From NCBI GenBank assembly GCA_963694315.1, contig CAVOCU010000002.1, forward strand, positions 1 through 50,083: DNA of 50,083 bases, read 5' to 3'. The position numbers were made by a program, and so were the translations under genes. Below are positions 3,717 through 48,393 of this stretch, one piece after another. Under the pieces are notes generated by a model. The model did no database searches. It was not told the origin of the DNA and worked only from the letters and a program-made list of their open reading frames with translations. Position 1 is the stretch's first letter. Every line of letters begins with the position of its first letter. This stretch comes from Dehalococcoidia bacterium. GTDB lineage: Bacteria; Chloroflexota; Dehalococcoidia; Lucifugimonadales; UBA1127.

Positions 3717-3873
3717 GCCATCCGGCGGAGACTAAAGACGAATATGTGAGGTCAGAGACTTTAGTCCCCCCGGCCCCCAAGCCAGTCCCAGACACGTGTC
3801 GCTGCGGCGAGGAACTAAAGACGAGTATGCGGCCTGCTGGCCGGAGGACTAAAGCTAGGCCGGGAGACTAAAG
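3717..3873 (-). repeat. Array of about 5 CTTTAGTC-core hairpin repeat units (mostly minus orientation) filling the moeB/cysteine-synthase gap
   Basis: Cores GAGACTAAAG 3728-3737, CTTTAGTC 3759-3766 (inverted), AACTAAAG 3813-3820, GACTAAAG 3847-3854 and GACTAAAG 3866-3873. Also contains the GTGTCGCTGCGGCGAGG module. Confidence 0.85.
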
Positions 3874-3875
3874 CT

Positions 3876-4826
3876 GTGCATGCCCGAACAGTCAAAAGCG
3901 ATATCCTAGACGCCATTGGCGATACTCCCCTTGTATATTTGCCGCACCTCAGCCCAAAGCCTGGGGTCAAAATTTACGCCAAGCTGGAGGGGCACAACCC
4001 CACCGGCAGCGTGAAAGACCGCATTGCCAAGCACATGATTAACCGGGCAGAAGCGGACGGTACCCTCACCCATGACAAAATCGTCCTGGAGCCCACCAGC
4101 GGCAACACCGGCATCTCCCTGGCCATGGTCTGTAAGATCAAGGGCTATAAGCTCAAAGTGGTCATGCCGGAGAACGTCAGCATAGAGCGCGCCCAGCTGC
4201 TTGAAGCGTACGGCGCAGAGATTCTCTTAAGCGATGGCGCGGGCGGCAGCAACCATGCCATCGTCGTCGCGCAGAAACTCTTTGCGGAAAAGCCGGACAC
4301 CTACTTCATGCCATACCAGTACGGCAATGAATCCAACCCGCTAGCCCACTATGAGACCACAGGTGTTGAGATTCTTGAGGCCCTGCCAGAGGTAGACACC
4401 TTTGTAGCGGGGCTTGGCACCGGCGGAACGCTGATGGGCGTTGGGCGAAGGCTGAAAGAGCACAACCCTGCTATCCAGGTCATTGCCGTAGTCCCATCTC
4501 CTGACGATGCCATCCAAGGGCTTCGCAGCCTTGACGATGGGTTCATCCCTCCCATTTTGAACACTGATCTCCTGGACTCGCGCATCATGATTGAGGGCAA
4601 GGAAGCCTTCGCCACTACGCGTTATCTGCTGGAGAAAGAGGGCATCTTTGCGGGGGTTTCCTCAGGGTCTGTCATCGCTGGAGCCCTCCGCATCGCAGCT
4701 AGACTTGACCACGGCAACGTCGTCTGCCTGCTTGCTGATGGCGGGTGGAAGTACCTGAGCACCAACCTTTGGACCACGGACTACGGAGACCTAGAGAGCC
4801 AGGTAAAGGGCAAAATCTGGTGGTAG
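3876..4826 (+). CDS. PLP-dependent cysteine synthase (CysK/CysM family)
   Basis: Contains PTGSVKDR (PLP lysine motif), TSGNTGISLA and GLGTGGT. The start is GTG, 3 nt after the repeat array. Confidence 0.85.
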   Translation: MHARTVKSDILDAIGDTPLVYLPHLSPKPGVKIYAKLEGHNPTGSVKDRIAKHMINRAEADGTLTHDKIVLEPTSGNTGISLAMVCKIKGYKLKVVMPENVSIERAQLLEAYGAEILLSDGAGGSNHAIVVAQKLFAEKPDTYFMPYQYGNESNPLAHYETTGVEILEALPEVDTFVAGLGTGGTLMGVGRRLKEHNPAIQVIAVVPSPDDAIQGLRSLDDGFIPPILNTDLLDSRIMIEGKEAFATTRYLLEKEGIFAGVSSGSVIAGALRIAARLDHGNVVCLLADGGWKYLSTNLWTTDYGDLESQVKGKIWW

Positions 4827-5001
4827 GTTCCCCTGCCCGGTAGCCAAGTCCCCTGGTTCTCCCACCACTATTCCCCAATTGCCTCTAGAAATTTTTGCGC
4901 TGATGTGGCACTCTACGCCAAACAAACCACTTCCGTTCATAAGGGCTACCCTGTATTCTATCGAACCTGAACATCCATTGAATTCATCTGGAGGATATCT
5001 G

Positions 5002-5508
5002 ATGACTATGGTTGACCCAACCGCATTCAAAGCAGCAGCAGGTAGTTTTGGCTCCGGGGTGACTGTGGTCACCTCAAAGCTGAATGGTCAGGTCTACGGA
5101 ATAACTGTCTCTGCTTTTGCATCCCTCTCTATAGACCCAATGCAGATCATCGTATCTTTACGAACCGGGAGCGTGCTTCCAGACATGATTATGGAATCCA
5201 AGGCCTTTGCTGTGAGCATTCTGCGAGAAGAGCAAAAAGAGGTCGCTTCATACTTCGCATCTTCAGGTCGGGAGCCCTGCGCAGATGAGTTCCCTGGCGT
5301 TCCCTGCGATACCGCTGTATCAGGAGCTCCCATCATTGGAGGCTCCCTGGCCCACTTTGACTGCACTCTGGCCACCACCCACGATGGAGGCGACCACGTC
5401 ATCTTCGTTGGGAACGTTGTGGAGGCTGCTGCGGAAGAAGGCGAGCCCCTCCTGTACTACAAAGGCACCTACCGCGGCGTTCGAGAGTGGGCTGCCAACG
5501 TATCCTAG
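5002..5508 (+). CDS. Flavin reductase-like (FMN-binding split-barrel) protein
   Basis: FKAAAGSFGSGVTVVT...GITVSAFASLSIDP is typical of the flavin_reduct domain. I chose the internal ATG at 5002 because GGAGGA lies 6 nt upstream. The track ORF starts at 4879. Confidence 0.7.
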   Translation: MTMVDPTAFKAAAGSFGSGVTVVTSKLNGQVYGITVSAFASLSIDPMQIIVSLRTGSVLPDMIMESKAFAVSILREEQKEVASYFASSGREPCADEFPGVPCDTAVSGAPIIGGSLAHFDCTLATTHDGGDHVIFVGNVVEAAAEEGEPLLYYKGTYRGVREWAANVS

Positions 5509-5517
5509 GTGCAATCT

Positions 5518-5634
5518 CAGGGACTGGCCTGCGGGCCAGAATCTTTAGTCTCTTCGCCGCAGCGATATGTGCGTGCTTTAGTCTCCGCCGGAGGCCACAC
5601 AGCTTTAGTCCCCTCGCCGCAGCGACACATGCCC
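5518..5634 (+). repeat. Repeat array D-A-B-A between convergent genes
   Basis: GGGACTGGCCTGCGGGCCAGA, followed by CTTTAGTC cores at 5543, 5576 and 5603. It ends 3 nt before the SDR stop codon. Confidence 0.9.
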
Positions 5635-5637
5635 TAA

Positions 5638-6853: not shown

Positions 6854-6933
6854 ATATGCAGGGGACTGGCCTGCGGGCTTTAGTCTCCGCCGGAGGCCAC
6901 ACTACTTTAGTCTCCTCGCCGCAGCGACATATC
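6854..6933 (+). repeat. Repeat array D(truncated)-B-A
   Basis: ATATGCAGGGGACTGGCCTGCGGG, then CTTTAGTCTCCGCCGGAGGCCACA, then CTTTAGTCTCCTCGCCGCAGCGACATATC. It ends 4 nt before the proA stop. Confidence 0.9.
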
Positions 6934-9196: not shown

Positions 9197-9585
9197 CATA
9201 TACAGGGGACTGGCCTGTGGGTCAGTGGGCCAGTGTTTGCTAGTAGCCAGAAGGAGGCGGGGTCTTTAGTCTCCCGGCCAGCAGGCCGCATGCCTGAGAC
9301 TGGCCTGTGGGCCAGAAGCCGACTTTAGTTCGCGCCGGAGCGATATATGCGCGCTTTAGTCTCCGCCAGAGGCAATACGCCGCATGCTACAATGTTTGTA
9401 GTTAAAGGCCAGCGTTGGAGGCACCCTCTCCACGCGCTGGCCCCTTTTGGCGTGTCTGGGACTTTAGTCTCCTCGCACCAGCGACACATATCTGGGACTG
9501 GCCTACGGGCCAGAAGCTTTAGCCCCCCGGCCAGTAGGCCGCATACTCGGCTTTAGTCTCCGCCGGAGGCAACACGCCGCATATT
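9197..9585 (+). repeat. Largest repeat array (about 10 units, all plus orientation) in the proB/mfd divergent gap
   Basis: CTTTAG cores at 9264, 9323, 9354, 9462, 9517 and 9552. D modules (GACTGGCCTRYGGGCCAG) at about 9205, 9297 and 9495. A unique 70-bp island (9387-9456) sits in the middle. Confidence 0.9.
9407..9450 (+). terminator. Orphan terminator-like hairpin inside the repeat array
   Basis: GGCCAGCG-T-TGGAG...CTCCA-CG-CGCTGGCC followed by CCTTTTGG. No plus-strand gene lies upstream. TACAAT occurs at 9388-9393. Confidence 0.35.
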
Positions 9586-23839: not shown

Positions 23840-24160
23840 GTGGCTTAGCCACTTTTGTGCTTCGCGGGTGTCGGTCGGGCGGGTATTTAGCCGGCTAAAG
23901 GGCCAGCACCGGCTAGAAGAAATAACCAATAGCGGTGTAAAAGGTCAGCACTCATATACCTTTAGCGCTACTGGCAGTAGTTGTCGCAGATCAAGAACGA
24001 CGGTGTTAATTGTCACCATCATGTGCGGGGGTAGGCTTCTCTTCTGCTACTTCTTCAACCGCTTCCGGTTGGGCAGGTTCACTGGCTGCAGAAAGAAACC
24101 AATAGCTGTCTAGGTAGCTCACCACAGCCGATTCAATCACCTCGGAGTCATCAAGTTAAG

Positions 24161-24202
24161 GCCAGACCCAGACGTATATGCGCTGCGACGAGGAGACTAA
24201 AG
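24161..24202 (-). repeat. Single A-type repeat unit next to the tsaD stop
   Basis: GCCAGACCCAGACGTATATGCGCTGCGACGAGGAGACTAAAG. Confidence 0.7.
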
Positions 24203-27326: not shown

Positions 27327-27354
27327 GGGTCTAGTTACTTAGGGTCGACGGTCG

Positions 27355-27995
27355 GTGCCGGCGTCAGCGCCCGTTGGGGAGCTAGAAGCTTCTGGCCTGA
27401 TGGCGTCCGCTCCAGCATCGGCGGGTCTGTCAGCGGTTCGGCTGCGAGCGCCTGTTGCTATACCAGCGGCCCTGTCAAAGCCAGCGGAGGCCCTGTCCAT
27501 TGCGCCCTTTGGACGCAGCCCTCGGTCACGTTTGAGGGGAAGTGGCACCACATCGATGCTGCTGGCATCAACCCACTGCCCGTCCAGCGACCCATCCCGG
27601 TCTGGTTCGGTGGCGGCGCCGACGCCCTACTCCGACGTATTGCCAGGATGGGTGACGGGTGGATTAGGGAGCCGCAGGTGCAGACGCGAAAAGAGAACCA
27701 GGCGATGCTTGACCGTTTGTTCGGTTTTGCCGAGGAGCTTGGTAGGGACCCCGCCAGCATTGGGATTGAAGGGCGCATAGAGTTTGTGGACAACCCGACG
27801 GAGCCGGCTGTGCTGGCTGCGTTACGCGACTGGCAGGACATGGGTGTGAACATCGTGACGTTGAGCACTAGGGCCGTTGGGCTGGACTCGCCCCAGGAGC
27901 AGATGAACGCCCTCAAGAAGTACATGAATGTTGCGATACCCTTTAGGTGCAGGGTCTTTAGCCCTCCGGCCCGCAGCGCACATGCCGGACTTTAG
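27355..27995 (+). pseudogene. Remnant of an LLM-class (luciferase-like, F420/FMN-dependent) oxidoreductase: C-terminal half only, with a frameshift
   Basis: ALWTQPSVTFEGKWHHIDAAGINPLPVQRPIPVWFGGGADALLRRIARMGDGWI matches the C-terminal half of LLM proteins. The upstream residues are plausible only in another frame (...PAALSKPAEALSIA...). A terminator hairpin sits where the N-terminal half should be. The 3' end runs into a repeat array. Confidence 0.6.
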
Positions 27996-28076
27996 TCTCC
28001 GCCAGAGGCGACACATAGGTCTGAGACTGGCCTGTGGGCCAGAGGCTTTAGTCTCCTCCACCACAGCGACAGACAG
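27941..28076 (+). repeat. Repeat array (units with cores at 27941, 27956, 27989 and 28046, plus a D module at 28024)
   Basis: Contains CTTTAGCCCTCCGGCCCGCAGCGCACATGCC, CTTTAGTCTCCGCCAGAGGCGACACAT, GAGACTGGCCTGTGGGCCAGAGG and CTTTAGTCTCCTCCACCACAGCGACAGAC. Confidence 0.85.
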
Positions 28077-28114
28077 CCTTGGGTTGGGTAACCGTCAGGC
28101 ATATGGGTGGAGGG

Positions 28115-28900
28115 CTAGCCCTCCCGATACGTCTCCATGTTGTCCTGGGGGTCAAAGCCCACAAGAGCCTGAGCGTTGCTGATATCCCAGAATCGCCACG
28201 TGTTGTTGGACACCCCGAAGAACGTAGCGAATCGTAGCGAGTCCGGTGCCACCACACATCGCTCCACCAGGTGCGCCAGGTCACGGTGACTGAAGATAGT
28301 GGCGAAGTGACGCACGTTGGCGGGTTTGCTGTCCGGCCTGACGGTGCCGAAGCGCAAGCAGATCACGGAGAGTCCGTGCCTGTCTGAGAAGTACCGTCCC
28401 GCAGCCTCGCCCATAGCCTTGGCAATGCCGTAGGGGCCACTGGGTCGAACGGGCATATCGGGTGTGATCATCGGGAACTTGCCGGGCTCCAGGCCTGTGT
28501 AGTCGCCGGCGCAGATGTTGGCGTAGGGCTGGTCAAGCTCGTAGTTCTCCGATGCACGGTTGGAGCTGGCGAAGATGATGCGCTTTACCCCCGCTCGCTT
28601 GGCAGCTTCCAGGGCGTTGTATATGGCGGGGATGTTGTTGCGATAAGCAGCGTGCCAGGGAAGGTTGCCCTGGGGACTGTTAGCAAGGTCCACTACCGTG
28701 TCTATGCCCTCGAAGGCTGGCTGTATCGCCTCCAGGTTTGTCATGTCCGCGACGGTCGACTCAAATCCGTCGGCCTTCCGGATGTCGATGCCGCTGACAT
28801 CGTGCTCGCCAACGAGTGCTTCACGGACGACTCCGCCTATTTGGCCCGCCACGCCGGTTATCAAAACGCGTTTCCCGTCTGCCATAGCTTTTCGCCTCAC
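28115..28900 (-). CDS. NAD-dependent epimerase/dehydratase family protein (extended SDR)
   Basis: Contains ITGVAGQIGG (GxxGxxG) and YGIAK (YxxxK). Confidence 0.8.
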   Translation of the reverse strand: MRRKAMADGKRVLITGVAGQIGGVVREALVGEHDVSGIDIRKADGFESTVADMTNLEAIQPAFEGIDTVVDLANSPQGNLPWHAAYRNNIPAIYNALEAAKRAGVKRIIFASSNRASENYELDQPYANICAGDYTGLEPGKFPMITPDMPVRPSGPYGIAKAMGEAAGRYFSDRHGLSVICLRFGTVRPDSKPANVRHFATIFSHRDLAHLVERCVVAPDSLRFATFFGVSNNTWRFWDISNAQALVGFDPQDNMETYREG

Positions 28901-28911
28901 ATTACAAGATT

Positions 28912-28999
28912 ACATGTGTCTGGGGCTGGCCTGATGATCAGAGGGGCTGACTTCAGTCTCCGCCGGAGGCAAGACGTCTTTAGCCCCTTCGCCGCAGCA
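28912..28999 (+). repeat. Repeat array D-B-A (diverged)
   Basis: CATGTGTCTGGGGCTGGCCTGATGATCAGAGG, then CTTCAGTCTCCGCCGGAGGCAAGAC, then CTTTAGCCCCTTCGCCGCAGCATG. Confidence 0.8.
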
Positions 29000-29105
29000 T
29001 GAGGATGATAGGGTGAGGCGACGATATGGTCAATGCTTTGTGGTGTCTCGACCTCCCTCCATGAGGGGACTACCCTATGGACTGTAAATTTTAAGGAGGT
29101 GTCCA

Positions 29106-29417: not shown

Positions 29418-29418
29418 C

Positions 29419-29524
29419 CAGGCCAGAGGCTTTAGTCTCCCGGCCCACAGGCCGCATACGGCTTTAGTCTCCGCCGGAGGCAATATTGCCTTTAGTCCCC
29501 TCGCCGCAGCGACACATGTCTGGG
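29419..29524 (+). repeat. Repeat array D(truncated)-C-B-A filling the whole gap between convergent stop codons
   Basis: CCAGGCCAGAGG, then CTTTAGTCTCCCGGCCCACAGGCCGCATACGG, then CTTTAGTCTCCGCCGGAGGCAATATTGC, then CTTTAGTCCCCTCGCCGCAGCGACACATGTCTGGGG. Confidence 0.9.
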
Positions 29525-30608: not shown

Positions 30609-30688
30609 GGCCTCCTATAGGTTCTGGTGCTAGTGGCGTCATTGTACAGCAGGTCTACAGTGGCACCATGCTGATGTGGTAGAGAACG

Positions 30689-31600
30689 TTACTGAGGCGA
30701 CAGGACAAAGAACCGACCGGCAGGTTTCGATGGGTCTGGCTGATAGACGTAGGACGATCCTAGGAGGAGCTCCTCCTCGTAGAGCACCTCTTCGTGGTCG
30801 TCGTAGTTGACGGTCACCGCATAGACATCATCGTGCTGGGGGTACAACTTCGCATACCCGTGTCTGTTGGTCCTGAATCGGCCTACCCCCAAAACGGCAA
30901 CTTTGGCACCATGGACTGGTACGCCCTGATCGTTAAGGATTCGCAACCATGTGGTCCTTCCGGGGAATAGCTGCCCGTAAACGAACCGCTTGATCCTCCC
31001 GAAGGGTCCCGGAACAAACCCCTTGCCAATGCTGACTAACACGTCCTTCTCGTACCCGATCTGTTTGGGCGTCACCCAGTCCGGTCCGTATTTGATCTCC
31101 AGGTATTCCTCAGGTGGATTGGGAACCAGGAACGTCGACCCGATGAACGGGGCTTCCTTGAGGTTGGTGAACAGGCTGGTGGGGAACCAGACCCCCGGAT
31201 AGTGGTACACCTTCCCATCAACCACCCGCATGATATACAAGTCAGTCTTCTGGTTTTCTTTGAGCAGCGCTAGATTGACATAGCTGCTGTTTTCATCCTC
31301 AACCTTTACGTAATACCCGTTGTCACGAAGCGCTTTGATTAATGGGTCAATGGATGCTTCCGTGAAGCCGTGAAGTCCGAAGACAATACCGAGATCAAGG
31401 TCATCGTCCCAGGGGATGAACGCGTGGTCACGGACAGCGCCGAGGCATGTGCCCTGCCGAAGGAAAAAGACTATGCCAAGCCCGTCGAGAATCCGTTTGA
31501 GTTCTATGAGCAGCTTCCCGGCGATGGCAACGTCCATCGCCGGAATGGTCCGATTCAGCCTGTCGAGCGTCTCTGCGTCACTGCTCTCGTTTGCGTCCAT
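30689..31600 (-). CDS. LicD-family nucleotidyl/phospho-alcohol transferase with extra C-terminal beta-rich domain
   Basis: Contains the LicD signature GTCLGAVRDHAFIPWDDDLDLGI. Confidence 0.7.
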   Translation of the reverse strand: MDANESSDAETLDRLNRTIPAMDVAIAGKLLIELKRILDGLGIVFFLRQGTCLGAVRDHAFIPWDDDLDLGIVFGLHGFTEASIDPLIKALRDNGYYVKVEDENSSYVNLALLKENQKTDLYIMRVVDGKVYHYPGVWFPTSLFTNLKEAPFIGSTFLVPNPPEEYLEIKYGPDWVTPKQIGYEKDVLVSIGKGFVPGPFGRIKRFVYGQLFPGRTTWLRILNDQGVPVHGAKVAVLGVGRFRTNRHGYAKLYPQHDDVYAVTVNYDDHEEVLYEEELLLGSSYVYQPDPSKPAGRFFVLSPQ

Positions 31601-31695
31601 ACATAGCTCCTTGGGCTCGTCGCCACCCGGGTCAACCGTATTGGCGACCTCCTAGAAGGTTCCGATTTGGCACTTGCCACAATGGGCAACTGATG

Positions 31696-34181: not shown

Positions 34182-34227
34182 CTATTTACACTCTACCTGT
34201 CATAGTTACTAGTCTAGCCTCGTATTT

Positions 34228-34255
34228 ATATATCGCTGCCGCGCGGGGACTAAAG
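34228..34255 (-). repeat. Single A-type repeat unit in the nuoM/nuoN gap
   Basis: ATATATCGCTGCCGCGCGGGGACTAAAG. Confidence 0.7.
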
Positions 34256-37666: not shown

Positions 37667-37670
37667 TGAG

Positions 37671-37691
37671 CCAGGCCAGCCCTATATGTGA
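37671..37691 (-). repeat. Partial D-type repeat module just upstream of the nuoL start, in the 139-bp nuoK/nuoL gap
   Basis: GCCAGGCCAGCCCTATATGTG. Compare the reverse complement of CATATACAGGGGACTGGCCTG. Confidence 0.5.
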
Positions 37692-37805
37692 TGCCCTTAG
37701 ACAATCCAGTCTCCTGATTTCTAATCTTTACCAGAGACAACCACGCTCGTTCAAACCCTGAGTCATTTATTCTCAAGAAGAGTCCTGAGCACGCTCTGAC
37801 CCTGG

Positions 37806-38111: not shown

Positions 38112-38680
38112 TAGCTCCGTTCCTCTGGTGTCTGGTCATTGGCCCCATCGGTACCCGTCAGGGAACGTGGGTCCAGAGTATCGCCCTGGCCCTGCCCGTC
38201 TGATGCTCGAGCCAGAATAATCGCGCCAATGAGGGCCATCAATAGAACCAGTGAGGCTATCTCAAAGGGCAAAACCCAGTTGGTGAAAAGCTCTGTGCCC
38301 AACCCTTCAAGGCTTGGGCCAGCGAGCTCTTGTGTATCGAGTTTGTTGTTGAGGATGACACCGGCCATCACACCAAGGAAGCTCAGCGCAGCTACAGCGG
38401 CAACGGCCCATTGGGGGTTGTCGCGGACATTGGAGAATTCCTCAGCGCGAGTCAGCATCAGCGCGAACAGAAGCACGATGGTGATGGCACCCCCGTAGAT
38501 GAGCACCTGCACCAAGGCCAGAAACTCAGCCATCAGGAGGATGAACACCCCGGCTACAGAAACCAGACTTAGGAGCAGAAAAAGGGCCGCATGGGCCACG
38601 TTGCGTGTGGTCACCACGCCTATCGCGCCACCTAGCACCATTACCGCCAGGAAGGTAAAGGCTACCGCACTGGCATCCAC
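38111..38680 (-). CDS. nuoJ: NADH-quinone oxidoreductase subunit J
   Basis: 189-aa membrane subunit between nuoI and nuoK. Confidence 0.88.
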   Translation of the reverse strand: MDASAVAFTFLAVMVLGGAIGVVTTRNVAHAALFLLLSLVSVAGVFILLMAEFLALVQVLIYGGAITIVLLFALMLTRAEEFSNVRDNPQWAVAAVAALSFLGVMAGVILNNKLDTQELAGPSLEGLGTELFTNWVLPFEIASLVLLMALIGAIILARASDGQGQGDTLDPRSLTGTDGANDQTPEERS

Positions 38681-39312
38681 TACTTGGCCTCCTCTACAGG
38701 GGGCTCTTTAGTCTCCGCACCGGCAGTCGTGTCATTAGCTGGCGCATCTTTAGTTTCTGTAACATCACCGGCAGACGCAGAAACGGCTTTAGTCTCTTCG
38801 CCGACAGGTGCAGTAGCAGCAGCCTTTGCAGCAGCTATAGCGGCTTTCTTAACCTCAGGGGCTATCCAGTTGGACTCAGCCTGATACTTCTTACCCATCT
38901 CCAACAGCACCGGTAGGTCTGACCTACGCCCGTCACGGGCATAGTGGCTGATTTCGTGCTCGTGGCTCATTTCAATGGCGTCAAAGTTGCAGACCTCAAC
39001 GCACAGGCCGCACAGAATGCAGCGACCTAAGTTAATCTCAAACTCTTCAATAATCTTGCGGCGGGTGCTCTTCCCCTCAGCGTGAAGAGGGTTGTCAATC
39101 ATCGTGCCGGACATACACTGCGTGGGGCACATGCGCACGCACACCATGCAGCCAACGCAGTACGGTTCACCCACCTTTGCGTCCCAGGTCAGGGCCGGGA
39201 ACCCAACTTGCCGTTCCATGAGGGGCAAGTGCTGCTTGGGGTACTGGGCAGTCACTGGCTTCCGCAGCGATGTCTGCAGGGTCATTAACATGCCCTTCAA
39301 CGTACTAAGCAC
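38680..39312 (-). CDS. nuoI: NADH-quinone oxidoreductase subunit I (2x[4Fe-4S]) with a C-terminal low-complexity extension of about 50-60 aa
   Basis: Contains CVGCMVCVRMCP and CILCGLCVEVCNFDAIEM. The tail is ...KKAAIAAAKAAATAPVGEETKAVSASAGDVTETKDAPANDTTAGAETKEPPVEEAK. Confidence 0.92.
   Translation of the reverse strand: MLSTLKGMLMTLQTSLRKPVTAQYPKQHLPLMERQVGFPALTWDAKVGEPYCVGCMVCVRMCPTQCMSGTMIDNPLHAEGKSTRRKIIEEFEINLGRCILCGLCVEVCNFDAIEMSHEHEISHYARDGRRSDLPVLLEMGKKYQAESNWIAPEVKKAAIAAAKAAATAPVGEETKAVSASAGDVTETKDAPANDTTAGAETKEPPVEEAK
38706..38830 (+). repeat. Three degenerate CTTTAGT-core units embedded in the 3' end of nuoI, read as E-T-K
   Basis: Cores at 38706-38713, 38748-38755 and 38787-38794, spaced 42 and 39 nt apart. 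The third unit, CTTTAGTCTCTTCGCCG, matches the unit at 5543 for 17 nt. Confidence 0.55.
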
Positions 39313-41706: not shown

Positions 41707-42591
41707 CTACATCATCCTGCCAAGAAGCTTCTTTGTCTGGTCCTCGGTGATCTTGAGGGGCCGAGACGACATAGGGCCATCCTTCAGGACAGGCTCTCGT
41801 GCATCAAGGGATGCAATGCCGTGACCTTGGAAGAAGAGGCCAATGTTGATGGTGTCTCCCCACTCCATAGCCTTTTCGCAAGCGGCCTTCCAGTCGCTTG
41901 AGTCGTGGCCCTGCTCCTCCAACTTGCTCACCCTGCTCTTGAAGAAATCGTGGGAATTATCGTCGTTGAAGGTCACGCAGGGGCTGAAGATGTCTACAAG
42001 GGAGAAGCCTTTGTGCTCAATGGCGCCCTTGATCATGGCCGTGGTGTGCCGGATGTCGCCGCTGTACGCGCGGGCAACGTAGGTTGCACCGTTCATGATA
42101 GCGGAGGTGATGGGGTTGATGGGTGTCTCTACGTTGCCAAAGGGCGTGCTCTTGGTCTTCATATCCAACCGACTGGTTGGTGAAATCTGCCCGGTGGTCA
42201 GACCGTAGATCTGGTTGTTCATGACAATGTAGGTGAGGTCAACGTTGCGGCGTGATGTGTGGGCGAGGTGGTTGCCGCCAATGCCGTAGCCGTCACCGTC
42301 TCCGCCGGTAGCAATGACCGTGAGTTCATGGTTGGCCATCTTGGCGCCCGTGGCAAAGGCCAGGGAACGCCCGTGGAGGGTGTGCATGCCATAGGAGTTG
42401 ATGTACCCCGGCAAGTTAGAAGAACACCCAATGCCACTTACCGTGAGAATCTGATGGGGCTGAAGGCCCAACTCAGCACAGGCACGTTGTAGCGAGTTTA
42501 GTACACCAAAGTCGCCACAGCCAGGACACCAGTCAGGGCTTGTTCCGGACCTAAAATCCGCGGCAGTTAATTCAATAGTTCCAGTAGTCAT
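41707..42591 (-). CDS. 2-oxoacid:ferredoxin (acceptor) oxidoreductase beta subunit (TPP/[4Fe-4S])
   Basis: Contains WCPGCGDFG and the TPP-binding motif GGDGDGYGIGGNH...NNQIYGLTTGQ. Confidence 0.9.
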   Translation of the reverse strand: MTTGTIELTAADFRSGTSPDWCPGCGDFGVLNSLQRACAELGLQPHQILTVSGIGCSSNLPGYINSYGMHTLHGRSLAFATGAKMANHELTVIATGGDGDGYGIGGNHLAHTSRRNVDLTYIVMNNQIYGLTTGQISPTSRLDMKTKSTPFGNVETPINPITSAIMNGATYVARAYSGDIRHTTAMIKGAIEHKGFSLVDIFSPCVTFNDDNSHDFFKSRVSKLEEQGHDSSDWKAACEKAMEWGDTINIGLFFQGHGIASLDAREPVLKDGPMSSRPLKITEDQTKKLLGRMM

Positions 42592-42604
42592 ATCAGCTTC
42601 CTCC

Positions 42605-44383
42605 CTAGACGTTCACTTCTTGATATGGGACGTAGGTGTCCACCTTGCCTGCAAGAATCTCCTGTACACCATCAGCAATGTGATGGGGCATGAATGGCTC
42701 TCCGTCATACTTGCGGATGTGGTTGTTGATGGTGAGGCCTGTCTCGCTCCTCAGATAGCGATAGAACTGGCCTGAGAAGTTGTTCTCCACCACAATGGTG
42801 CGCTTGGCCTTGTTGACCACGTTTGTAATGGCCTCGCCGTGCAGCGGGACCATCCATTTAACGGCAATTTGATTGGCGGTGACTCCGCGTTCCTTGAGGG
42901 TAGCAATAGCCTCGCGGATAACGCCCTCAGTGGATCCCCATCCTACGATGGTGACCTCAGCGTCTACCGGGCCTTCCAACACGGGGGCCTCAATGGCTTT
43001 TTCGATGTTTTCGAACTTACGGGCACGCTTTTCCACCATCTTCCGACGCTTGTGTGGATTGGTGAACTCGTCGCTGAGAAGGGAGCTGTTCTCGTCGTGC
43101 TCATCGGTTGCAACCACGTGGACAAAGCCCTTGGTGCCGGGGACGGCTCGAGGCGAAATGCCAGTCTCCGTGTCCTTGTACCGCATGTAGCCGTTCTGCT
43201 CCGCGTCCTCAGTGATCAGCGCTCCACGGTCAATTACAGGGTTCATGTTGAGGTTGTCCGGGTCCACGCTGAAGGTTCCTTCTGAAATCAGAAGATCAGA
43301 GAGGACAAGGCCCGGGGCCTGATACTTGTCTGTCAGGTTGAACAACTCTGCCATGGTGTTAAAGGCGTCCAGGGCACTCTTGGGGGCTACGATGAAGCGG
43401 GGGAAGTCTCCCTGGCTTGCGCCTAGCATCTGCCAGAGGTCGCCCTGCTCCGTTTTGGTGGGGACTCCGGTAGATGGACCCGCACGTTGCACGTTCACCA
43501 TCACCACGGGAATCTCCATCATTGAGGCTGCGCCAACCGCTTCTGTCATCAGCGCAAATCCACCGCCGGCGGTGGCCGTCATGGCGCGAGTCCCGGTTTG
43601 GGCTGCGCCGATAATCATGTTTGCTGCAGCAATCTCGTCTTCAACCTGCCTGACCATGATTCCAAGGTCCCTGGCGTTCTGGGCAAACCAGTGAAGGACG
43701 CCGGTTGAAGGACTCATTGGATACGCGGCGTAGAACTTGACGCCCGCGGCCGCAGCGCCCATGGCGATGGCTTCATTACCTGCCCATTGCGCTAGGGCAT
43801 GGGGGTTTTCCGGCAACGATCCGCCAAATGCTTCAAAGTTCTTAACTGCGTAATCGTACCCGGCACGGGCAACGCCTACGTTCTCATCAACTACTGCCTG
43901 ACCCTGACGCTGGAAACGCGCTTTAAGGCTCTCTTCCAGGGTCTCAAAGTCCAGACCCATAAGGGCACTGGTGGCGCCAACGGCTACGGTGTTCTGTACC
44001 AGCCGGTTACGGCTGCCAGACAACTCTGATACCGGGAGGGGACATAGGCCAACACCCTTGGCGGCATCGCCTGGCGTGATGGTGTCACCGTTGAATATCA
44101 CGCGGGTGTTGTCTCCCATCAACCTAAGGTGCCGGTCCATGGTGTCCTGGTTGAGGCACACCAACAAATCCAGTTTATCGCCGTGGCTGTATACGGGTTC
44201 TTCCCCAACACGGATGGTGAGGAAAATATGCCCGCCACGGACAATGGATTGATAGGCGTTATAGGCGTTGAGATGGAGGCCTCGACGAATAAACAGTCGG
44301 GCCATGATGTTTCCGGGAGTTGCGATGCCTTGACCGGCCTCGCCTCCAATTGCTAGGGCGAAATCAAATTTCCCTGCAGCCAT
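42605..44383 (-). CDS. 2-oxoacid:ferredoxin (acceptor) oxidoreductase alpha subunit (gamma-alpha fusion, two-subunit type)
   Basis: 592 aa. The N-terminus is gamma-domain-like (IGGEAGQGIATPGNIMA) and is followed by the alpha core (YPMSPST, GGGFALM). RBS GAGGAG lies upstream. Confidence 0.9.
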   Translation of the reverse strand: MAAGKFDFALAIGGEAGQGIATPGNIMARLFIRRGLHLNAYNAYQSIVRGGHIFLTIRVGEEPVYSHGDKLDLLVCLNQDTMDRHLRLMGDNTRVIFNGDTITPGDAAKGVGLCPLPVSELSGSRNRLVQNTVAVGATSALMGLDFETLEESLKARFQRQGQAVVDENVGVARAGYDYAVKNFEAFGGSLPENPHALAQWAGNEAIAMGAAAAGVKFYAAYPMSPSTGVLHWFAQNARDLGIMVRQVEDEIAAANMIIGAAQTGTRAMTATAGGGFALMTEAVGAASMMEIPVVMVNVQRAGPSTGVPTKTEQGDLWQMLGASQGDFPRFIVAPKSALDAFNTMAELFNLTDKYQAPGLVLSDLLISEGTFSVDPDNLNMNPVIDRGALITEDAEQNGYMRYKDTETGISPRAVPGTKGFVHVVATDEHDENSSLLSDEFTNPHKRRKMVEKRARKFENIEKAIEAPVLEGPVDAEVTIVGWGSTEGVIREAIATLKERGVTANQIAVKWMVPLHGEAITNVVNKAKRTIVVENNFSGQFYRYLRSETGLTINNHIRKYDGEPFMPHHIADGVQEILAGKVDTYVPYQEVNV

Positions 44384-45040: not shown

Positions 45041-45082
45041 GAGCGCTTCGCCTCTTTTGTCCAAACCCGGTCCCAGGGGGGC

Positions 45083-45140
45083 TGCTGGCGCATGGCCAGT
45101 CCCTTTAGCTGCTGGTGCCGGAGCCGTCTCCGGGGAGGGC
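45083..45140. repeat. Repeat-like segment (D module plus palindromic B-like module) at the nuoB/nuoC junction
   Basis: CTGGCGCATGGCCAGTCCCTTTAG contains the family 10-mer GGCCAGTCCC and a CTTTAG core. CCGGAGCCGTCTCCGG is a palindrome. The nuoB stop TAA (45105-45107) is the CTAAAG core read on the minus strand. Confidence 0.5.
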
Positions 45141-46126: not shown

Positions 46127-46180
46127 TTCAACCCTCCAAATAGTGCAAATACTATAGCATGGCAGAGTGTTATCCTGCAC

Positions 46181-46372
46181 CCTGACCCACAGGCCAGTCC
46201 CCGGCATGTCGCTGCGGCGAGGGGACTAAGGCTCCGGCCCCCCTGGTCTACAGGCCAATCCCCGGCATGTCGCTGCGGCGAGGGGACTAAAGCCGTATTG
46301 CCTCCGGCGGACATAGCGGTGACGGAACATTACAAAATTACACTGTAATCTCCTCGCCGCAGCGACATTTGT
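46181..46372. repeat. Repeat array upstream of nuoA: D-A-D-A-B(degenerate) in minus orientation plus one inverted A unit
   Basis: CATGTCGCTGCGGCGAGGGGACTAA(A)G occurs twice (46205-46230 and 46266-46292). The arms ATGTCGCTGCGGCGAGG (46267-46283) and CCTCGCCGCAGCGACAT (46352-46368) form a 17-bp inverted repeat with a 68-nt spacer. Confidence 0.9.
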
Positions 46373-46523
46373 AACCGCAGGAGTGTGGGTCAAGGGCATC
46401 GCCCTTGCCTGTGCTAAAATGCTCCTGCTAGCGAATAGGGAGCGGTGAAACACGAACGCCTTTGCGACTCGATACTTAGCGGCGCTGGAGTACAAGGACT
46501 ACCGGTGGCTGTGGCTTGCTGCC

Positions 46524-47702
46524 ATGAGCGGCGCGTCGGCCTATTGGGCGCTGATTGTAGCGCGCGGCGTGCTGGTACTGGAGATGTCCGGCTCCTCTGG
46601 AATGGTTGGCATCGTCACCTTTGCAGCTATGGCTCCTCGCTTTATCATCCCGCCAATAGCAGGCTACCTGGCGGATAGGTTCAATCGTAAAGACGTGTTG
46701 GCTACCGTCTACTGGGTCAACATGGTCACCACCGTGCTCCTGGCAGGTCTTGCTTTGGCAAATGTCCTGGAACTTTGGCATCTTATGACGCTGTCCGTAC
46801 TGAACGGCACCGCTCGTACCTTCCAAATGACCTCTACGGCTGCGCTGGTCCCTAATCTAGTGCCCCGTGAACGACTGCTCAATGCGGTCTCGTTGAACTC
46901 CGTGACCCAGCAAGGCTCTAGGTTGTTTGGGCCGGGCCTGATTGCGCCGTTGCTGATTTTCTATGGGCCGGACGCCGCCTTCTTGCTTAGCGCGGTGTTC
47001 TACCTTTGGGGGCTGGTGATGGTCAGTCGCATCCAGACACGCTCCACCGGAGATGTCCGGTCAGGGACGAACATGCTGGCCAGCCTTGGAATTGCGGCAT
47101 TGGTGGTGTATCAGAACCCCAAGCTGCGAGTGCTGTTTGCCCTGGTGGCGTTGCATTGCGCCATGACCATGTCCTTCGAGTCCATGTTGCCTATCTTCTC
47201 TCGCGATGTATTGGGCAGTGGCGGTGCCGGCGTCAGCTACTTGATGATGTCTGTGGGCGCAGGCGGGCTGGTATCGTCGTTGTTCATCGCCGGGGTAAAA
47301 GAGGACTGGCTCAGGGGCAGACTTCTGTTGGTGGCAGGCGTAGCCAGCGGAGGCTCCATGTTGGCGTTAGCGGCATCGCCGAACATTCTTACGGCCAGCC
47401 TTTCTGGGGTTGCTATGGGGGCGTCTCAGGCAGCGTTCATGACGTTACTTGCGGCTATGGTGCAGATGATGGCACCTGACGCTATGCGTGGTCGGATCAG
47501 CGGACTTAACCAGATAAACATTGGCGGGACAATGGCGATGGTCAACCTGGGCAATGGCTTCATCGCCGATGCCGTGGGTTCATCGGTCGTCCTGACAACC
47601 CTGGGTATAAGCTTCATGGTGGTCATGATGGTGAGCATACTGGTGACTACATTACGAAACGTGTACGTGGGTGGCGTGCCCGCTCTTGCGACGGCACCCT
47701 AG
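46524..47702 (+). CDS. MFS transporter (MFS_3/EntS-like); true start probably upstream of the first ATG
   Basis: 12-TM profile. The in-frame upstream sequence ...FATRYLAALEYKDYRWLWLAA looks like the conserved MFS_3 N-terminus, but it has no canonical start codon before the in-frame TGA at 46446. Confidence 0.8.
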   Translation: MSGASAYWALIVARGVLVLEMSGSSGMVGIVTFAAMAPRFIIPPIAGYLADRFNRKDVLATVYWVNMVTTVLLAGLALANVLELWHLMTLSVLNGTARTFQMTSTAALVPNLVPRERLLNAVSLNSVTQQGSRLFGPGLIAPLLIFYGPDAAFLLSAVFYLWGLVMVSRIQTRSTGDVRSGTNMLASLGIAALVVYQNPKLRVLFALVALHCAMTMSFESMLPIFSRDVLGSGGAGVSYLMMSVGAGGLVSSLFIAGVKEDWLRGRLLLVAGVASGGSMLALAASPNILTASLSGVAMGASQAAFMTLLAAMVQMMAPDAMRGRISGLNQINIGGTMAMVNLGNGFIADAVGSSVVLTTLGISFMVVMMVSILVTTLRNVYVGGVPALATAP

Positions 47703-47703
47703 C

Positions 47704-47967
47704 ATGGACGATGAAGCTTTTATCCAGAACATGCACAGTCGCATTGAGGAGAGCACCGGGGTGTCTATCATCTTGGAGCTTAACCACGATCAGCGTGAGG
47801 ACATTGATGTGCTCTTCAGTGGTGATACGCCTCGCGTGGTGATGGGCGCCGATGCCCTAGAGCACGCGGGCCTAGCGCGTATGTTCATGCAGTTTGCTAT
47901 CCTCAGCCTGCGGGAGGGTCGCAAAGCGGAGCAGGAAGAGTTCCTTCGGTTCCTCCGCCGTAACTAG
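47704..47967 (+). CDS. Hypothetical protein (87 aa)
   Basis: The ATG lies 1 nt after the MFS stop. I recognise no family. Confidence 0.45.
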   Translation: MDDEAFIQNMHSRIEESTGVSIILELNHDQREDIDVLFSGDTPRVVMGADALEHAGLARMFMQFAILSLREGRKAEQEEFLRFLRRN

Positions 47968-48286
47968 CCAGGGCTGGCCCTGCATATACACCCGATGTAA
48001 TAACGGGTTAACTTCCTCGAGTGACCATTAGGAACTCGGGTCAAGGGCCTCGCCCTTGGGTCAACTAGCGGCCTCAGTCACCACTGCGCCCTTGGCTGGG
48101 CGGCGCGCGGCTTGCGCCTATTGCACTACCTCCTCCATTGCACCGACGTCGGGCATGAAGATTGGCTCTTTAGCGATGTGTTTTCCTTTGTTCTTAAGCC
48201 AGTAACCCTGAGCGCGATGGGCTATATACTCAAACCAGAAAGGCCCGGAGTAAAGCCCGGTGTAGGTCGAGGAATGGTAGCACAGG

Positions 48287-48393
48287 CATATGTCGCTGCG
48301 GCGAGGGGACTAAAGTCGGCCCGTCTGGCCCGCAGACCAGTCCCCTTCATATGCGCCCAGTTGACAGACTGATTCTGCGCGCGGAGACTACAG
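48287..48393 (-). repeat. Repeat array A-D-(B/A variant), minus orientation
   Basis: CATATGTCGCTGCGGCGAGGGGACTAAAG, then TCGGCCCGTCTGGCCCGCAGACCAGTCCCC, then ...CTGCGCGCGGAGACTACAG. Confidence 0.85.

Follow-up and report, generated by a model that had tools for sequence, protein, structure and literature searches.

Repeat modules in the window

The DNA analysed here (50,083 nt, referred to as the window) comes from a Dehalococcoidia bacterium and carries thiF, cysK, mfd, tsaD and nuo genes. Short hairpin modules lie in the gaps between genes and, at a few sites, inside them. Units of types A, B and C are 25-30 nt long and consist of an 8-11-nt tag (CTTTAGTCYCC), a GC hairpin of 3-6 bp and an ACAYATG tail; the types are set apart by the sequence of the hairpin stem. 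Module D is a capping hairpin composed of its own CATATG-like box on the 5' side, GGGACT (the reverse complement of AGTCCC in the tag), a 6-bp hairpin and AGAGG. Most arrays are headed by D or a D-like hairpin. The following loci were found.

3713-3873, minus: thiF-cysK gap; B 3713-3737, plus-strand palindromic tag GAGACTTTAGTCCCC 3755-3769, D 3769-3789, A variant 3793-3820, C 3825-3854, C fragment 3855-3873
5520-5631, plus: D-A-B-A, convergent gap between flavin reductase and short-chain dehydrogenase genes
6862-6933, plus: D (truncated)-B-A, between two minus-strand genes
9206-9575, plus: largest array, divergent gap upstream of mfd; D with insert, linker GTGTTTGCTAGTAGCC 9233-9254, C 9264-9293, D 9296-9316, A variant 9323-9349, B 9354-9378, unrelated long hairpin 9407-9442, A 9462-9490, D 9494-9514, C 9517-9546, B 9551-9575
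24159-24202, minus: downstream of tsaD, directly after the stop codon; A 24173-24202, truncated D 24159-24172
24547-24599, minus: inside tsaD; in-frame A 24571-24599, then coding D-like hairpin 24547-24568
26035-26083, minus: A 26035-26063, tag-like fragment CTTTAGCT within 26067-26083
27956-28125, plus: C/A-like unit 27956-27986, B 27990-28014, D 28023-28043, degenerate A 28046-28076, H hairpin GGTGGAGGGCTAGCCCTCCC 28106-28125
28919-29004, plus: divergent gap; degenerate D 28919-28944, B 28951-28975, truncated A 28978-29004
29418-29518, plus: fills a convergent gap; D remnant 29418-29429, C 29430-29459, B 29462-29486, A 29490-29518
34227-34255, minus: A variant inside the 108-nt nuoM-nuoN gap
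37668-37714, minus: nuoL-nuoK gap; degenerate D-like remnants CATATAGGGCTGGCCTGGCTC and GGAGACTGG...
38706-38808, plus: nuoI tail; three degenerate tag-bearing units, 38706-38726, 38748-38774 and 38787-38808
45082-45109, minus: nuoB-nuoC junction; tag-like CTAAAG and D-like hairpin
46181-46311, minus: upstream of nuoA; B (truncated, 46293-46311)-A (46264-46292)-D-A (46203-46231)-D (46181-46201)
46343-46371, plus: A-like copy CTGTAATCTCC..., opposite in orientation to the neighbouring array
48287-48393, minus: upstream of an AhpD-like gene; degenerate unit with CTGTAGTC tag 48369-48393, D 48324-48344, A 48287-48315

Exact matches to the core CTTTAGTC number 26 in the window, whereas dinucleotide-preserving shuffles contain 0.76 +/- 0.92 (largest, 3), and GGGGACTGGCC at no more than one mismatch occurs 10 times against 2.2 expected. 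When the four consensus modules were scanned for by ungapped Hamming distance with mismatches allowed, 33-36 modules were called (A, 12; B, 8; C, 4; D, 12), and none in any of 20 shuffles. The window and the fetched loci together gave 446 module calls, redundant loci included. Tandem Repeats Finder picked up almost none of the arrays.

An earlier, sequence-only reading of the window had described the module sequences and their small hairpins correctly, and the spacing measured here (27-33 nt, start to start) agrees with it. Its four-module grammar holds for A to D and is incomplete, since E, F and H hairpins and a linker insert are also present. It put the number of loci at 18 or more and called the intergenic DNA saturated; we count about 16 loci (13 intergenic gaps and the tsaD, nuoI-tail and nuoB/nuoC sites), and of the 36 gaps that measure 40 nt or more only 13 have modules, which cover about 14% of intergenic bases. 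Of the copies it placed among the nuo genes, those at the nuoB/nuoC junction, the nuoI tail and the nuoM/nuoN gap stand, whereas the nuoK/nuoL gap holds only degenerate remnants of weak resemblance, below the Hamming thresholds.

Independent metagenome assemblies from ENA and JGI contain the same arrays at 99.8-100% identity, so the arrays are not the assembly artefact that the sequence-only reading had allowed for; identical arrays are also present in separately assembled Logan contigs. Comparison with Rfam, which that reading had also raised, yielded no release 15 family at gathering score anywhere in the window, and a full-text literature search with the core and its 11-mer extensions in both orientations returned no paper on these repeats among the matches listed. 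The reading of the window repeats as a real family of modular hairpin repeats, each array with a single polarity, is supported.

Among 185,579 species genomes searched for exact matches, only four marine Dehalococcoidia MAGs, from different studies, contain module A. Related metagenome contigs also carry it, 2.9 million viral contigs do not, and modules continue beyond the window on the same contig. The family is genome-wide, as proposed, and lineage-wide, and it is restricted to one small, uncultured clade of marine Dehalococcoidia.

Orientation and structure of the arrays

In all DNA examined, 206 of 208 arrays have a single orientation. The proposed rule of one orientation per locus thus holds, with two local exceptions in the window: the plus-strand core at 3755-3769 within a minus-strand array and the plus-strand A-like copy at 46343-46371. 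Between loci, orientation flips repeatedly within the 50 kb (23 modules plus, 13 minus), which is not the usual outcome of lagging-strand, single-strand transposition of the IS200/IS605 type. In gaps between tandem genes, 38 arrays are sense and 38 antisense to transcription; the array at 6862-6933, lying between two minus-strand genes, is antisense. Arrays are mildly over-represented in convergent gaps, which account for 37 of the 140 arrays in classified gaps and for 104 of all 557 gaps. Because copies are found in either orientation relative to transcription, they look largely neutral for the host.

In 97-99% of cells the local hairpins keep their pairing, with a few compensatory changes (for example, CTGACC/GGTCAG and CCGC/GCGG), and no T run follows them. 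Pairing between GGGACT and AGTCCC showed no covariation (pair 16-54: GC, 13; GU, 11; AU, 4; unpaired, 8). Upstream of the first tag-bearing unit, position -2 is G in 87 of 119 cases, and the sequence there is more structured than shuffled or downstream sequence. Some copies form a 14-nt palindrome, GGGACTTTAGTCYC. The module A consensus is identical in five genomes, with within-genome mismatch equal to between-genome mismatch, even though coding DNA is only 75-85% identical, an estimate of conservation that carries a bias, since an exact match to module A was used to fetch the loci.

Gain, loss and reshuffling between relatives

Module presence differs between relatives at orthologous intergenic regions, the comparison that the sequence-only reading had suggested, and orthologous gaps hold different arrays, some in opposite orientation. 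The thiF-cysK gaps of L018 and L026 have the same orientation as the window and different modules, while in the gap of the 27956-28125 array, L074 and L021 carry arrays in the opposite orientation. In the gap at 28919-29004, the orthologous D and truncated A of L074 flank A-C instead of B; L003 has its B-A elsewhere in this gap, and L021 lacks modules. The gap at 29418-29518 holds D-B-A in L021 and is nearly identical to the window in L030. Arrays thus persist at the same gaps while their member modules change, and arrays are also missing from orthologous gaps of close relatives with no visible consequence.

Between close relatives, L041 among them, single modules are gained or lost, as with the array at 26035-26083, which fills a 73-nt gap between two minus-strand genes: L041 has an extra C module (34 nt) directly 5' of A, and L003 has no module there. 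For this difference between the window and L041, loss through slippage between tags is an equally good explanation. Downstream of tsaD, L041 carries B-A-D-A-D-A, in which the duplicated A copies share a private loop variant; shared private variants mark other duplicated units as well. Upstream of nuoA, the array of the window has two copies of a 61-nt A-D unit, as do L089 and L094; L096 has a single copy, L090 and L095 have three, and such differences in copy number occur within one population. A 2,123-nt indel between the window and L093 has its junction inside a D module, with breakpoints in D 46181-46201 and D 48324-48344.

Copies also appear at separate sites. The B-A part of the 5520-5631 array is 92% identical over 61 nt to 6872-6932, and B-A pairs have inserted independently at different places within one gap. 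In L030 (92-96% identical), the nuoM stop and nuoN start codons overlap (TAATG) and no module is present. No clean, high-identity pair of empty and filled sites that would define element ends, target sequence or target duplication was found, and the two cleanest inserts (tsaD, 57 nt; nuoM/nuoN, 105 nt) exceed the length of a module. Module swaps could reflect ectopic gene conversion instead of transposition. The family is still being gained, lost and shuffled.

Nature of the repeat family

In REPs, a short GC hairpin follows a conserved linear tag on its 5' side, and one tag can be combined with hairpins of several types; inverted pairs dominate in classical REP/BIME clusters, and RAYT genes are often flanked by their own REPs (PMC3733652). 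The repeats described here likewise have one linear tag 5' of a short GC hairpin of several types. They differ in a tag consensus without GTAG or CGTC, in stems of 3-6 bp (5-13 bp in known REP families) and in arrays that run head to tail, without inverted doublets (REPINs). The sequence-only reading had drawn this contrast with REP/BIME as well as that with CRISPR, and both proved correct; unlike CRISPR, the arrays have no spacers. Its statement that the window has no transposase also holds, and in 682 kb of sequence enriched for perfect A copies, which is a small and redundant part of the genomes, there was no match to Y1/HUH or RAYT proteins at E <=10, no HUH...Y motif and no multicopy ORF. 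The repeats are best described as a lineage-specific REP/BIME-like mosaic that falls short of the defining REP/BIME features.

We favour, with a probability of about 0.6, the interpretation that the repeats are a lineage-specific family of miniature, non-coding and non-autonomous DNA elements, similar to a REP/BIME mosaic or mini-MITEs. Units or small composites (D-A, B-A and D-B-A) arise at new sites that are not homologous, among them gaps within operons and loops in coding sequence. Existing arrays expand, contract and swap modules, and recombination or slippage between tags or D hairpins in direct repeat can remove the genes that lie between them. The comparisons above show both processes, appearance at new sites and turnover of arrays. 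A new unit may be laid beside an existing hairpin in fixed polarity, and a recognition target within the module would then explain the head-to-tail arrays of single orientation. The identity of the consensus across genomes with diverged coding DNA suggests a conserved trans-acting factor that would recognise tag and hairpin; a hairpin-recognising, single-strand DNA enzyme is no more than our leading guess.

There are four other possibilities. The modules might be classical REPs or REPINs, cut and copied by a RAYT (a Y1 HUH transposase) whose single gene would lie elsewhere in these genomes, with the tag corresponding to GTAG. The tag-hairpin architecture fits the published description of REPs (PMC3733652), as do the high copy number, the intergenic location with some intragenic copies, the vertical persistence of copies in orthologous gaps, their consensus conserved, and the insertion beside other small palindromes. 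The tag sequence, the short stems, the head-to-tail arrays, the lack of inverted doublets and the failure to find a RAYT or IS200-type protein in the 682 kb make this reading unlikely, at perhaps one chance in five. Functional cis elements under selection, either binding sites (for a nucleoid-associated protein or an HTH regulator on GGGACT/AGTCCC half-sites) or orientation-independent RNA hairpins that stabilise or punctuate transcripts, would account for the sequence identity across genomes, for arrays that persist while modules change and for the excess in convergent gaps. The palindrome GGGACTTTAGTCYC may resemble the DosR box of the NarL family. The support for this, a string match in PMC5999986, is a lead and not a test. 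Selection on such elements is nevertheless improbable given the arrays missing from close relatives, the variation in copy number inside one population, the random orientation to transcription, the copies within ORFs, the hairpins without a T run, the pairing without covariation and the roughly two-thirds of gaps that have no module.

Purely local tandem repeats of the VNTR or MIRU type, generated by replication slippage without dispersal and similar between loci by ancestry, would explain the one to three copies of the 61-nt unit, the A-D duplications with private variants and the single-module indels between direct tags. Neighbouring modules are usually of different types, however, and are therefore not duplicates of each other. 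This and the near blindness of Tandem Repeats Finder, the copies at sites empty in relatives (including the tsaD interior and nuoM/nuoN), the opposite orientations in one orthologous gap and the hundreds of module calls leave slippage as the sole process very unlikely. For a collapsed or chimeric assembly, a degenerate CRISPR or a chance motif, only the short, repetitive nature of the sequence speaks. That reading, which we give practically no weight, is refuted by the independent assemblies, the distribution among MAGs from different studies and the module-free shuffles; the absence of spacers and of an Rfam family also argues against it.

Copies used by host genes

Copies of this family are occasionally co-opted as a peptide segment (the TsaD loop and NuoI tail) or as a stop codon (ORF 27321-27995 and nuoB). 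In TsaD, the A module is read in frame and encodes 11 residues. L041 shares the insert with the window. The 16 residues aligned there are missing from the L024 ortholog, and in L003 the stretch is different and shorter, with gaps of 7 and 5 residues. The collection has the exact TsaD protein of the window in 41 indexed blocks; 21 contigs that encode it were examined. The C-terminal extension of NuoI (...GEETKA...TETKD...AETKE...) corresponds to the three tag-bearing units, antisense to nuoI and read in frame; L030, with 5-6 such units, has a longer tail. ORF 27321-27995 takes its stop codon from the TAG of a B tag (27993-27995), and nuoB from the TAA (45105-45107) of the tag-like element at nuoB-nuoC. 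The sequence-only reading had missed the in-frame copies, the tag-donated stop codons, the copy-number polymorphism in the population and the 2.1-kb indel. It had noticed GGGAGA ahead of the GTG of cysteine synthase, which we place in the last unit of the thiF-cysK array, 9-10 nt before the cysK start at 3876; a Shine-Dalgarno role as a putative ribosome-binding site of cysK is plausible.

A tagged hairpin repeat family in the window

The window carries a family of miniature tagged hairpin repeats that is lineage-specific and still dynamic. Its core, CTTTAGTC, occurs 26 times in the 50,083 nt, compared with a mean of 0.76 and a maximum of 3 in dinucleotide-preserving shuffles, and the core-less motif GGGGACTGGCC was found 10 times with at most one mismatch where 2.2 matches were expected. 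An ungapped Hamming scan with the four consensus sequences, which misses copies containing indels, returned 33 to 36 modules depending on the threshold for D (A, 12; B, 8; C, 4; D, 12) and none in 20 of 20 shuffles. Modules A to D are real, with the sequences and small hairpins that the sequence-only reading had described, and their spacing (27-33 nt) also agrees with that description. TRF gave four short rows for the window and nothing relevant, and ARAGORN gave nothing relevant to the modules.

The modules occupy ~16 loci: 13 intergenic gaps, tsaD, the nuoI tail and the nuoB/C junction. There are indeed many dispersed loci, fewer than the at least 18 that had been claimed. The earlier statement that the repeats saturate the intergenic DNA was too strong, because only 13 of the 36 gaps of at least 40 nt hold modules and called modules cover ~14% of the intergenic bases; the stretch from 10 to 23 kb is module-free. 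Of the copies placed within the nuo operon, those at the nuoB/C junction, in the nuoI tail and in the nuoM/N gap were recovered, and the nuoK/L gap holds a degenerate remnant only.

Module anatomy

Modules A, B and C share one plan: the tag CTTTAGTCYCC (GGRGACTAAAG on the other strand), then a hairpin, then the tail ACAYAYG. The hairpin is TCGC-CGCA-GCGA in A and CGGCC-AGCA-GGCCG in C, and B has a stem of 3-6 bp. The tag consensus contains neither GTAG nor CGTC, and one degenerate tag copy reads CTGTAGTC. Position-wise conservation across A copies (n = 68) begins abruptly, on the 5' side, at the C of CTTTAGTC, is high in tag, stem and loop, and decays along the tail ACAyatg.

In module D, GGGACT comes first (the tag's AGTCCC in reverse complement), a 6-bp hairpin (CTGGCC-TGCG-GGCCAG) follows and AGAGG is last; between D and the next tag is a linker of 2-10 nt. 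A CATATG-like box nearly always lies 5' of D, even where D is the first module of an array. At the head of most arrays is D, or a variant or remnant still recognisable as D. In the first 80, A stood alone in 23 (many with a degenerate D upstream), DA occurred 10 times and DBA and BA 5 times each, and DABA and ADBA were also seen. In grammars such as DA, DBA, DABA and DCDB, D acts as a left cap and A mostly closes the array, with B, C and A as the variable units in between.

Further elements join these arrays. Module F (GGGGGCACATCCCCC) was seen in the related contigs L024 (1380-1530), L059, L062 and L078, among others, as part of a group with modules E and H and a linker insert. Module E (CCAGAGGGGAACCCCTCTGGACTCCCC) shares intergenic arrays with A to D, and both E and F are nested within the D hairpin, whose arms are split around them. 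In addition, a 14-nt palindrome, GGGACTTTAGTCYC, arises where GGGA, GAGA or CGGA lies directly 5' of the tag. Window positions are:

9233-9254, linker insert GTTTGCTAGYAGCC
28106-28125, H module GGAGGGCTAGCCCTCC
3755-3769, 14-nt palindrome
9457-9472, 14-nt palindrome
27986-28000, 14-nt palindrome

Modules E, F and H and the GTTTGCTAGYAGCC insert were missing from the four types first listed; this and the claim of saturation apart, the sequence-only reading was largely right in description and interpretation. A long near-perfect hairpin unrelated to A to D (GGCCAGCGTTGGAGGCACCCTCTCCACGCGCTGGCC, 9407-9442) lies in the middle of the largest array, upstream of mfd.

The local hairpins are well supported: 97-99% of cells are paired across 36 distinct D-A copies, with occasional compensatory variants such as CTGACC/GGTCAG. 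The DNA structure of minimum energy for the consensus (z -2.1) is a larger D-A fold, which combines a CATATG/CATATG closing stem with a GGGACT/AGTCCC stem. In the same 36 copies its pairing and covariation were no better than in column shuffles, the CATATG boxes (68% paired) likewise did no better than shuffles, and GAGACT tag variants lacked a co-varying AGTCTC. Because covariation gives it no support, the larger fold was rejected, and the two local hairpins stand.

The palindrome presumably resembles the DosR box of NarL-family regulators. The one link to a DosR box that we have is a string match in PMC5999986. The palindrome GGGACTTTAGTCCC is a candidate site for NarL/LuxR-type regulators of this clade.

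Host and distribution

When one genome for each of 185,579 species was searched, the exact 25-nt module-A pattern matched 26 stretches, all of them in four MAGs that are labelled Dehalococcoidia bacterium and come from marine samples. The window is 75-85% identical to the syntenic parts of these MAGs and therefore comes from a fifth related organism. A single metagenome scan gave 57 further module-A stretches, and its matches include contigs of a close relative, 92-96% identical to the window (sample ERZ890510). On the contig of the window itself, 10 more modules were found in the 9.9 kb past the 3' end and none in the 9.3 kb past the 5' end. The family is thus not confined to the window, given its presence in the contig neighbourhood, the four MAGs and the metagenome contigs. 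Neither module A nor module B matched any of 2.9 million viral contigs.

By exact-protein look-up, the window's own population was traced to many independent assemblies from ENA, JGI and Logan, at 99.8-100% identity; one scaffold among them, of 90,961 nt, matches at 100% across the 4 kb compared. Since the same arrays recur in independent assemblies, they are not assembly artefacts, which rules out a possibility that the sequence-only reading had raised against itself. Searches of the full-text literature with the core and its 11-mer extensions, in both orientations, returned no paper on these repeats among the best-ranked matches; the motif matches were unrelated primers and a DosR-box string only. 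We also found no paper on repetitive extragenic palindromic sequences in Dehalococcoidia.

Polarity is a property of the array

Across all DNA examined, 206 of 208 arrays have a single orientation, and the grammar listing contains one mixed array among 80. This bears out the proposal that modules run head to tail in one orientation per array. Relative to transcription, arrays in tandem gene gaps are evenly divided (38 sense, 38 antisense), and convergent gaps are mildly over-represented (they hold 37 of the 140 arrays that lie in classified gaps and make up 104 of all 557 gaps). Orientation also switches many times along the window, with 23 modules on the plus strand and 13 on the minus strand. 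Polarity therefore belongs to the array, does not follow the transcript and has no visible link to the replichore.

Position -2 before the first tag-bearing unit is G in 87 of 119 non-redundant cases, and the 34 nt 5' of that unit fold better than shuffled or downstream sequence (p about 0.001-0.006). Tag-bearing units therefore typically lie just 3' of a hairpin.

A sense-specific element acting at the RNA level was considered and rejected. The 38:38 split stands against it, RNA fold z values reach only -0.7 to -1.1, and a comparison with Rfam, which had been proposed in the sequence-only reading, gave no family at gathering score.

Gain, loss and turnover

The comparison of orthologous gaps that had likewise been proposed revealed differences in presence and in module content between relatives. 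New sites acquire units or small composites, existing arrays gain, lose and swap modules, and recombination uses the modules as substrates. In species at 75-85% identity the same gaps tend to carry arrays with differing modules, as in the thiF-cysK gap, and certain gaps that hold modules in one species lack them in another. The gap at 28901-29105 holds D-B-A in the window, B-A at another position in the related locus L003 and no module in L021; at 27996-28114 the relatives' arrays are opposite in orientation to that of the window.

Changes are also visible at closer range. Between the window and its 92-96% identical relative, (i) a 34-nt C module directly 5' of the A at 26035-26063 is present in one and absent from the other, (ii) the B at 28951 is replaced by A-C in the relative, between an orthologous D and a truncated A, (iii) the nuoM-nuoN gap of the window contains a 105-nt insert with an A variant where the relative's genes overlap as TAATG, and (iv) a tandem A-D duplication lies downstream of tsaD in the relative, and a private loop variant is common to its copies. 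Copy number varies even among sequences from one population, at least 99.8% identical: contig L096 has a single 61-nt A-D unit upstream of nuoA, the window, L089 and L094 have two, and L090 and L095 have three.

Gene-sized change can involve modules as well. A segment of 2,123 nt (window 46207-48329), with modules, a small ORF and the gene for an MFS transporter (46524-47702), is missing from contig L093, which is 96-98% identical to the window. The junction of this indel falls within a D module, and the D copies at 46181-46201 and 48324-48344 flank the segment as a direct repeat. The segment is apparently missing from the more distant L005 and L010 and present in L012. Module boundaries are not a general rule for gene-sized indels: a 1.06-kb segment (30616-31679) and a 3.3-kb difference (at ~27505) have no modules at their bounds. 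The former, which includes a 303-residue ORF (30689-31600), is missing from L030, a contig of the 92-96% identical relative.

The first 25 positions of the A consensus are identical in 5 of 6 genome groups and copies of A show a mean mismatch of ~2/26 within and between genomes alike, in an estimate for which all loci save the window were fetched by exact A match.

Modules within genes and gene signals

Module A is open in four of its six reading frames, and the tag contributes a TAG on one of its strands and a TAA on the opposite one. In TsaD an A module lies in frame and encodes 11 residues. The insertion of which it is part amounts to 19 residues relative to L024 in the DNA alignment; tblastn gave a 16-residue gap in L024 and two shorter ones in L003. 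The close relative has this insertion as well, and all three orthologs conserve an adjacent D-like hairpin. The C-terminal extension of NuoI consists of antisense units read as ...ETK... repeats, three in the window and 5-6 in the close relative. This low-complexity tail of ~55 residues (38680-38850, minus strand, 3' end of nuoI) is ~30 residues longer in the relative (L030, 8100-8330). Given the repeat units and the difference in tail length, it is therefore a variable coding tandem repeat in a complex I subunit.

Modules also provide stop codons. The TAG of a B tag ends the ORF at 27321-27995, and the TAA of a tag-like CTAAAG adjoining a D-like hairpin ends nuoB. The former ORF matches only the middle part of a luciferase-like monooxygenase profile (136-244 of 314). 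The close relative has ~3.3 kb of extra DNA (L074, 560-3892) at the site matching window 27505, so the window copy of this ORF may be a deletion remnant.

At the start of cysK, the last repeat unit places GGGAGA 9 nt before the GTG at 3876, as the sequence-only reading had indicated for this cysteine-synthase gene. Two cysK orthologs keep ~30 extra nucleotides with a GGGGAA of their own. The GGGAGA of the repeat unit could plausibly act as a Shine-Dalgarno sequence for cysK.

Search for a mobilising enzyme

The search for an IS200/IS605-type Y1 (RAYT) transposase that had been suggested was carried out on 577-682 kb. In REP systems the cognate RAYT, a Y1 HUH transposase, is typically encoded by one gene copy with the repeats on either side. 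With E. coli TnpA-REP and four IS200/IS605 TnpA proteins as queries (checked against PDB entries, TnpA-REP against 4ER8), phmmer found no match in the six-frame ORFs of this DNA, nor did a small HMM and HUH...Y motif regexes. We found no ORF family repeated within a locus, no multicopy transposase-like ORFs in the sampled DNA of the lineage, and no transposase domain in the precomputed Pfam lists for ~20 kb flanking the window. The weight of these negatives is low, because 577-682 kb is a small and redundant sample of several genomes.

A module-flanked ORF at 48433-48903 (minus strand, 156 residues) was discarded as a candidate enzyme: it is antisense to an AhpD-like gene and probably spurious. 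The gene on the plus strand (48436-49146), whose product we take from its N-terminal sequence to be AhpD/carboxymuconolactone-decarboxylase-like, is apparently split into two ORFs (48436-48732 and 48781-49146); L010 has two tandem paralogous copies.

Comparison with known repeat systems

REPs are 20-40 nt palindromes with a GTAG or CGTC tag at one end and stems of 5-13 bp (Di Nocera et al. 2013, PMC3733652). Most dimers are HH or TT, with HT dimers either missing or scarcer than expected; intragenic copies, insertion into other small palindromes and clusters encoding 20-82 residues have been reported; and RAYTs are associated with GTAG families and with no CGTC family (PMC3733652). The present family behaves like REP/BIME mosaics and is best regarded as REP/BIME-like. 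The likeness covers units of 20-40 nt (here 25-30 nt) in which one end of a GC-rich hairpin bears a short and conserved linear tag, stem and loop subtypes within one family, and many copies (36 in 50 kb, none in shuffles) that are mostly intergenic (13 of ~16 loci) and partly intragenic. It extends to restriction to a lineage, insertion in or beside small palindromes, and mosaics with other short motifs, here of A to D, the hairpins E, F and H and linker inserts, whose order varies; as in CGTC families, no dedicated transposase is evident. The differences are that the tag is CTTTAGTC(YCC) rather than GTAG or CGTC, that stems have 3-6 bp rather than 5-13 bp, that a capping module carries the tag's reverse complement, and that no RAYT turned up in the DNA searched. 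Arrays are almost wholly head to tail whereas HH or TT dimers dominate in known families, so that neither the inverted doublets of REPINs nor the alternating orientation of BIMEs is seen. Since both the GTAG/CGTC tag and inverted pairing fail, we did not file the family under REP/REPIN.

Other classes of repeat fit less of the evidence. MITEs would call for terminal inverted repeats, and none exist beyond the 6-nt palindromic CATATG boxes that bracket D...A composites; nor is a target-site duplication visible at presence/absence sites, and for these reasons the family is not a MITE. It is not a CRISPR either, because there are no spacers: units abut or have linkers of 0-10 nt, the variable part comes from a small set of hairpins, and the ~16 loci are dispersed. 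The contrasts with CRISPR and with classic REP/BIME orientation had both been drawn correctly beforehand. MIRU-VNTRs are tandem repeats of one 40-100 nt unit in operon gaps that abut stop and start codons and vary in copy number between strains. The present family likewise has direct tandem arrays in operon gaps, next to stop and start codons, and the 61-nt A-D unit and the nuoI tail vary in copy number in this VNTR-like way; most arrays here, by contrast, mix different modules, a unit stands alone at many loci, and orientation to transcription can be either. The BOX elements of Streptococcus pneumoniae (boxA-boxB(n)-boxC) are intergenic and hairpin-forming, built of 45-59 nt modules with distinct ends and a variable internal number. 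The D cap, the usually terminal A and the variable internal modules recall this layout, but the sequences are unrelated, every internal module here repeats one tag, solo units occur (23 A) and order is freer. RPE-1 of Rickettsia is ~100-150 nt long. Like RPEs and intragenic REPs, the present repeats lie in frame at tolerated positions of conserved housekeeping proteins (a probable surface loop of TsaD, the NuoI C-terminal tail); here, however, the coding copies are 29-nt units or tandem runs and a minority of the family. Finally, the small dispersed repeats (mini-MITEs) of heterocyst-forming cyanobacteria, the subject of work by Elhai and colleagues in 2008, are reportedly nested hairpin units of ~21-27 nt with no transposase identified. 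They nest in one another and in other repeats and are intergenic, occasionally in genes; to our knowledge, head-to-tail arrays with a common tag are not their described arrangement. The two share very small, nested hairpin units and differ in sequence and host phylum.

Possible mechanism and significance

What is unusual here is the strict head-to-tail polarity, a tag of 8-11 nt kept across hairpin types, a cap that bears its complement, and the lack of any transposase in the DNA searched. The feature recognised at insertion may lie in the modules themselves, as a hairpin followed by a G-rich linker, and head-to-tail polarity would then arise because each module carries it. A conserved trans-acting factor may recognise the modules, which the invariant consensus across diverged genomes would reflect. 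The 8-11 nt tags and the 20-nt D hairpins could give rise to local changes, through slipped-strand mispairing or through recombination between them that is unequal or ectopic. We give a probability of about one in five to the joint reading that CTTTAGTC modules form a third tagged-hairpin superfamily beside GTAG and CGTC, in which a non-RAYT enzyme would read tag and hairpin and lay units directionally beside an existing hairpin. This would be a polar, self-targeting mini-element system, undescribed before, whose modules would also serve as recombination sites for gene-sized gain and loss, the D-bounded 2.1-kb segment with the MFS transporter being an example, and it would belong to an abundant, uncultured marine lineage. 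No major paradigm is changed unless the mobilising mechanism proves new.

Few components of bacterial genomes are as poorly understood as small tagged hairpin repeats, whose best-studied families are inverted doublets tied to a RAYT. The present family, with a different tag, head-to-tail polarity and no RAYT found, thus offers a helpful contrast when asking how these repeats spread and keep their sequence. The hosts are uncultured marine Dehalococcoidia known only through metagenomes. In these organisms modules contain false long ORFs, stop codons and start sites, so the repeats matter for annotation; assembly and binning are affected too, and the site with variable copy number of the 61-nt unit is a ready strain marker. 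Repeat DNA has been incorporated into the conserved proteins TsaD and NuoI, and repeats mediate loss or gain of a transporter gene within a population.

Gene content of the window

The genes of the window include luciferase-like monooxygenases, a flavin reductase, short-chain dehydrogenases and a nuo operon of the 11-subunit type, a content that would fit a SAR202-type member of the Dehalococcoidia. The nuo genes are ordered A-B-C-[POR]-D-H-I-J-K-L-M-N, without nuoE, nuoF and nuoG. Between nuoC and nuoD, at 41707-44383, are two genes with POR, POR_N, TPP_enzyme_C and PFO_beta_C domains (pyruvate/2-oxoacid:ferredoxin oxidoreductase), and this gene set suggests an 11-subunit, possibly ferredoxin-linked complex.
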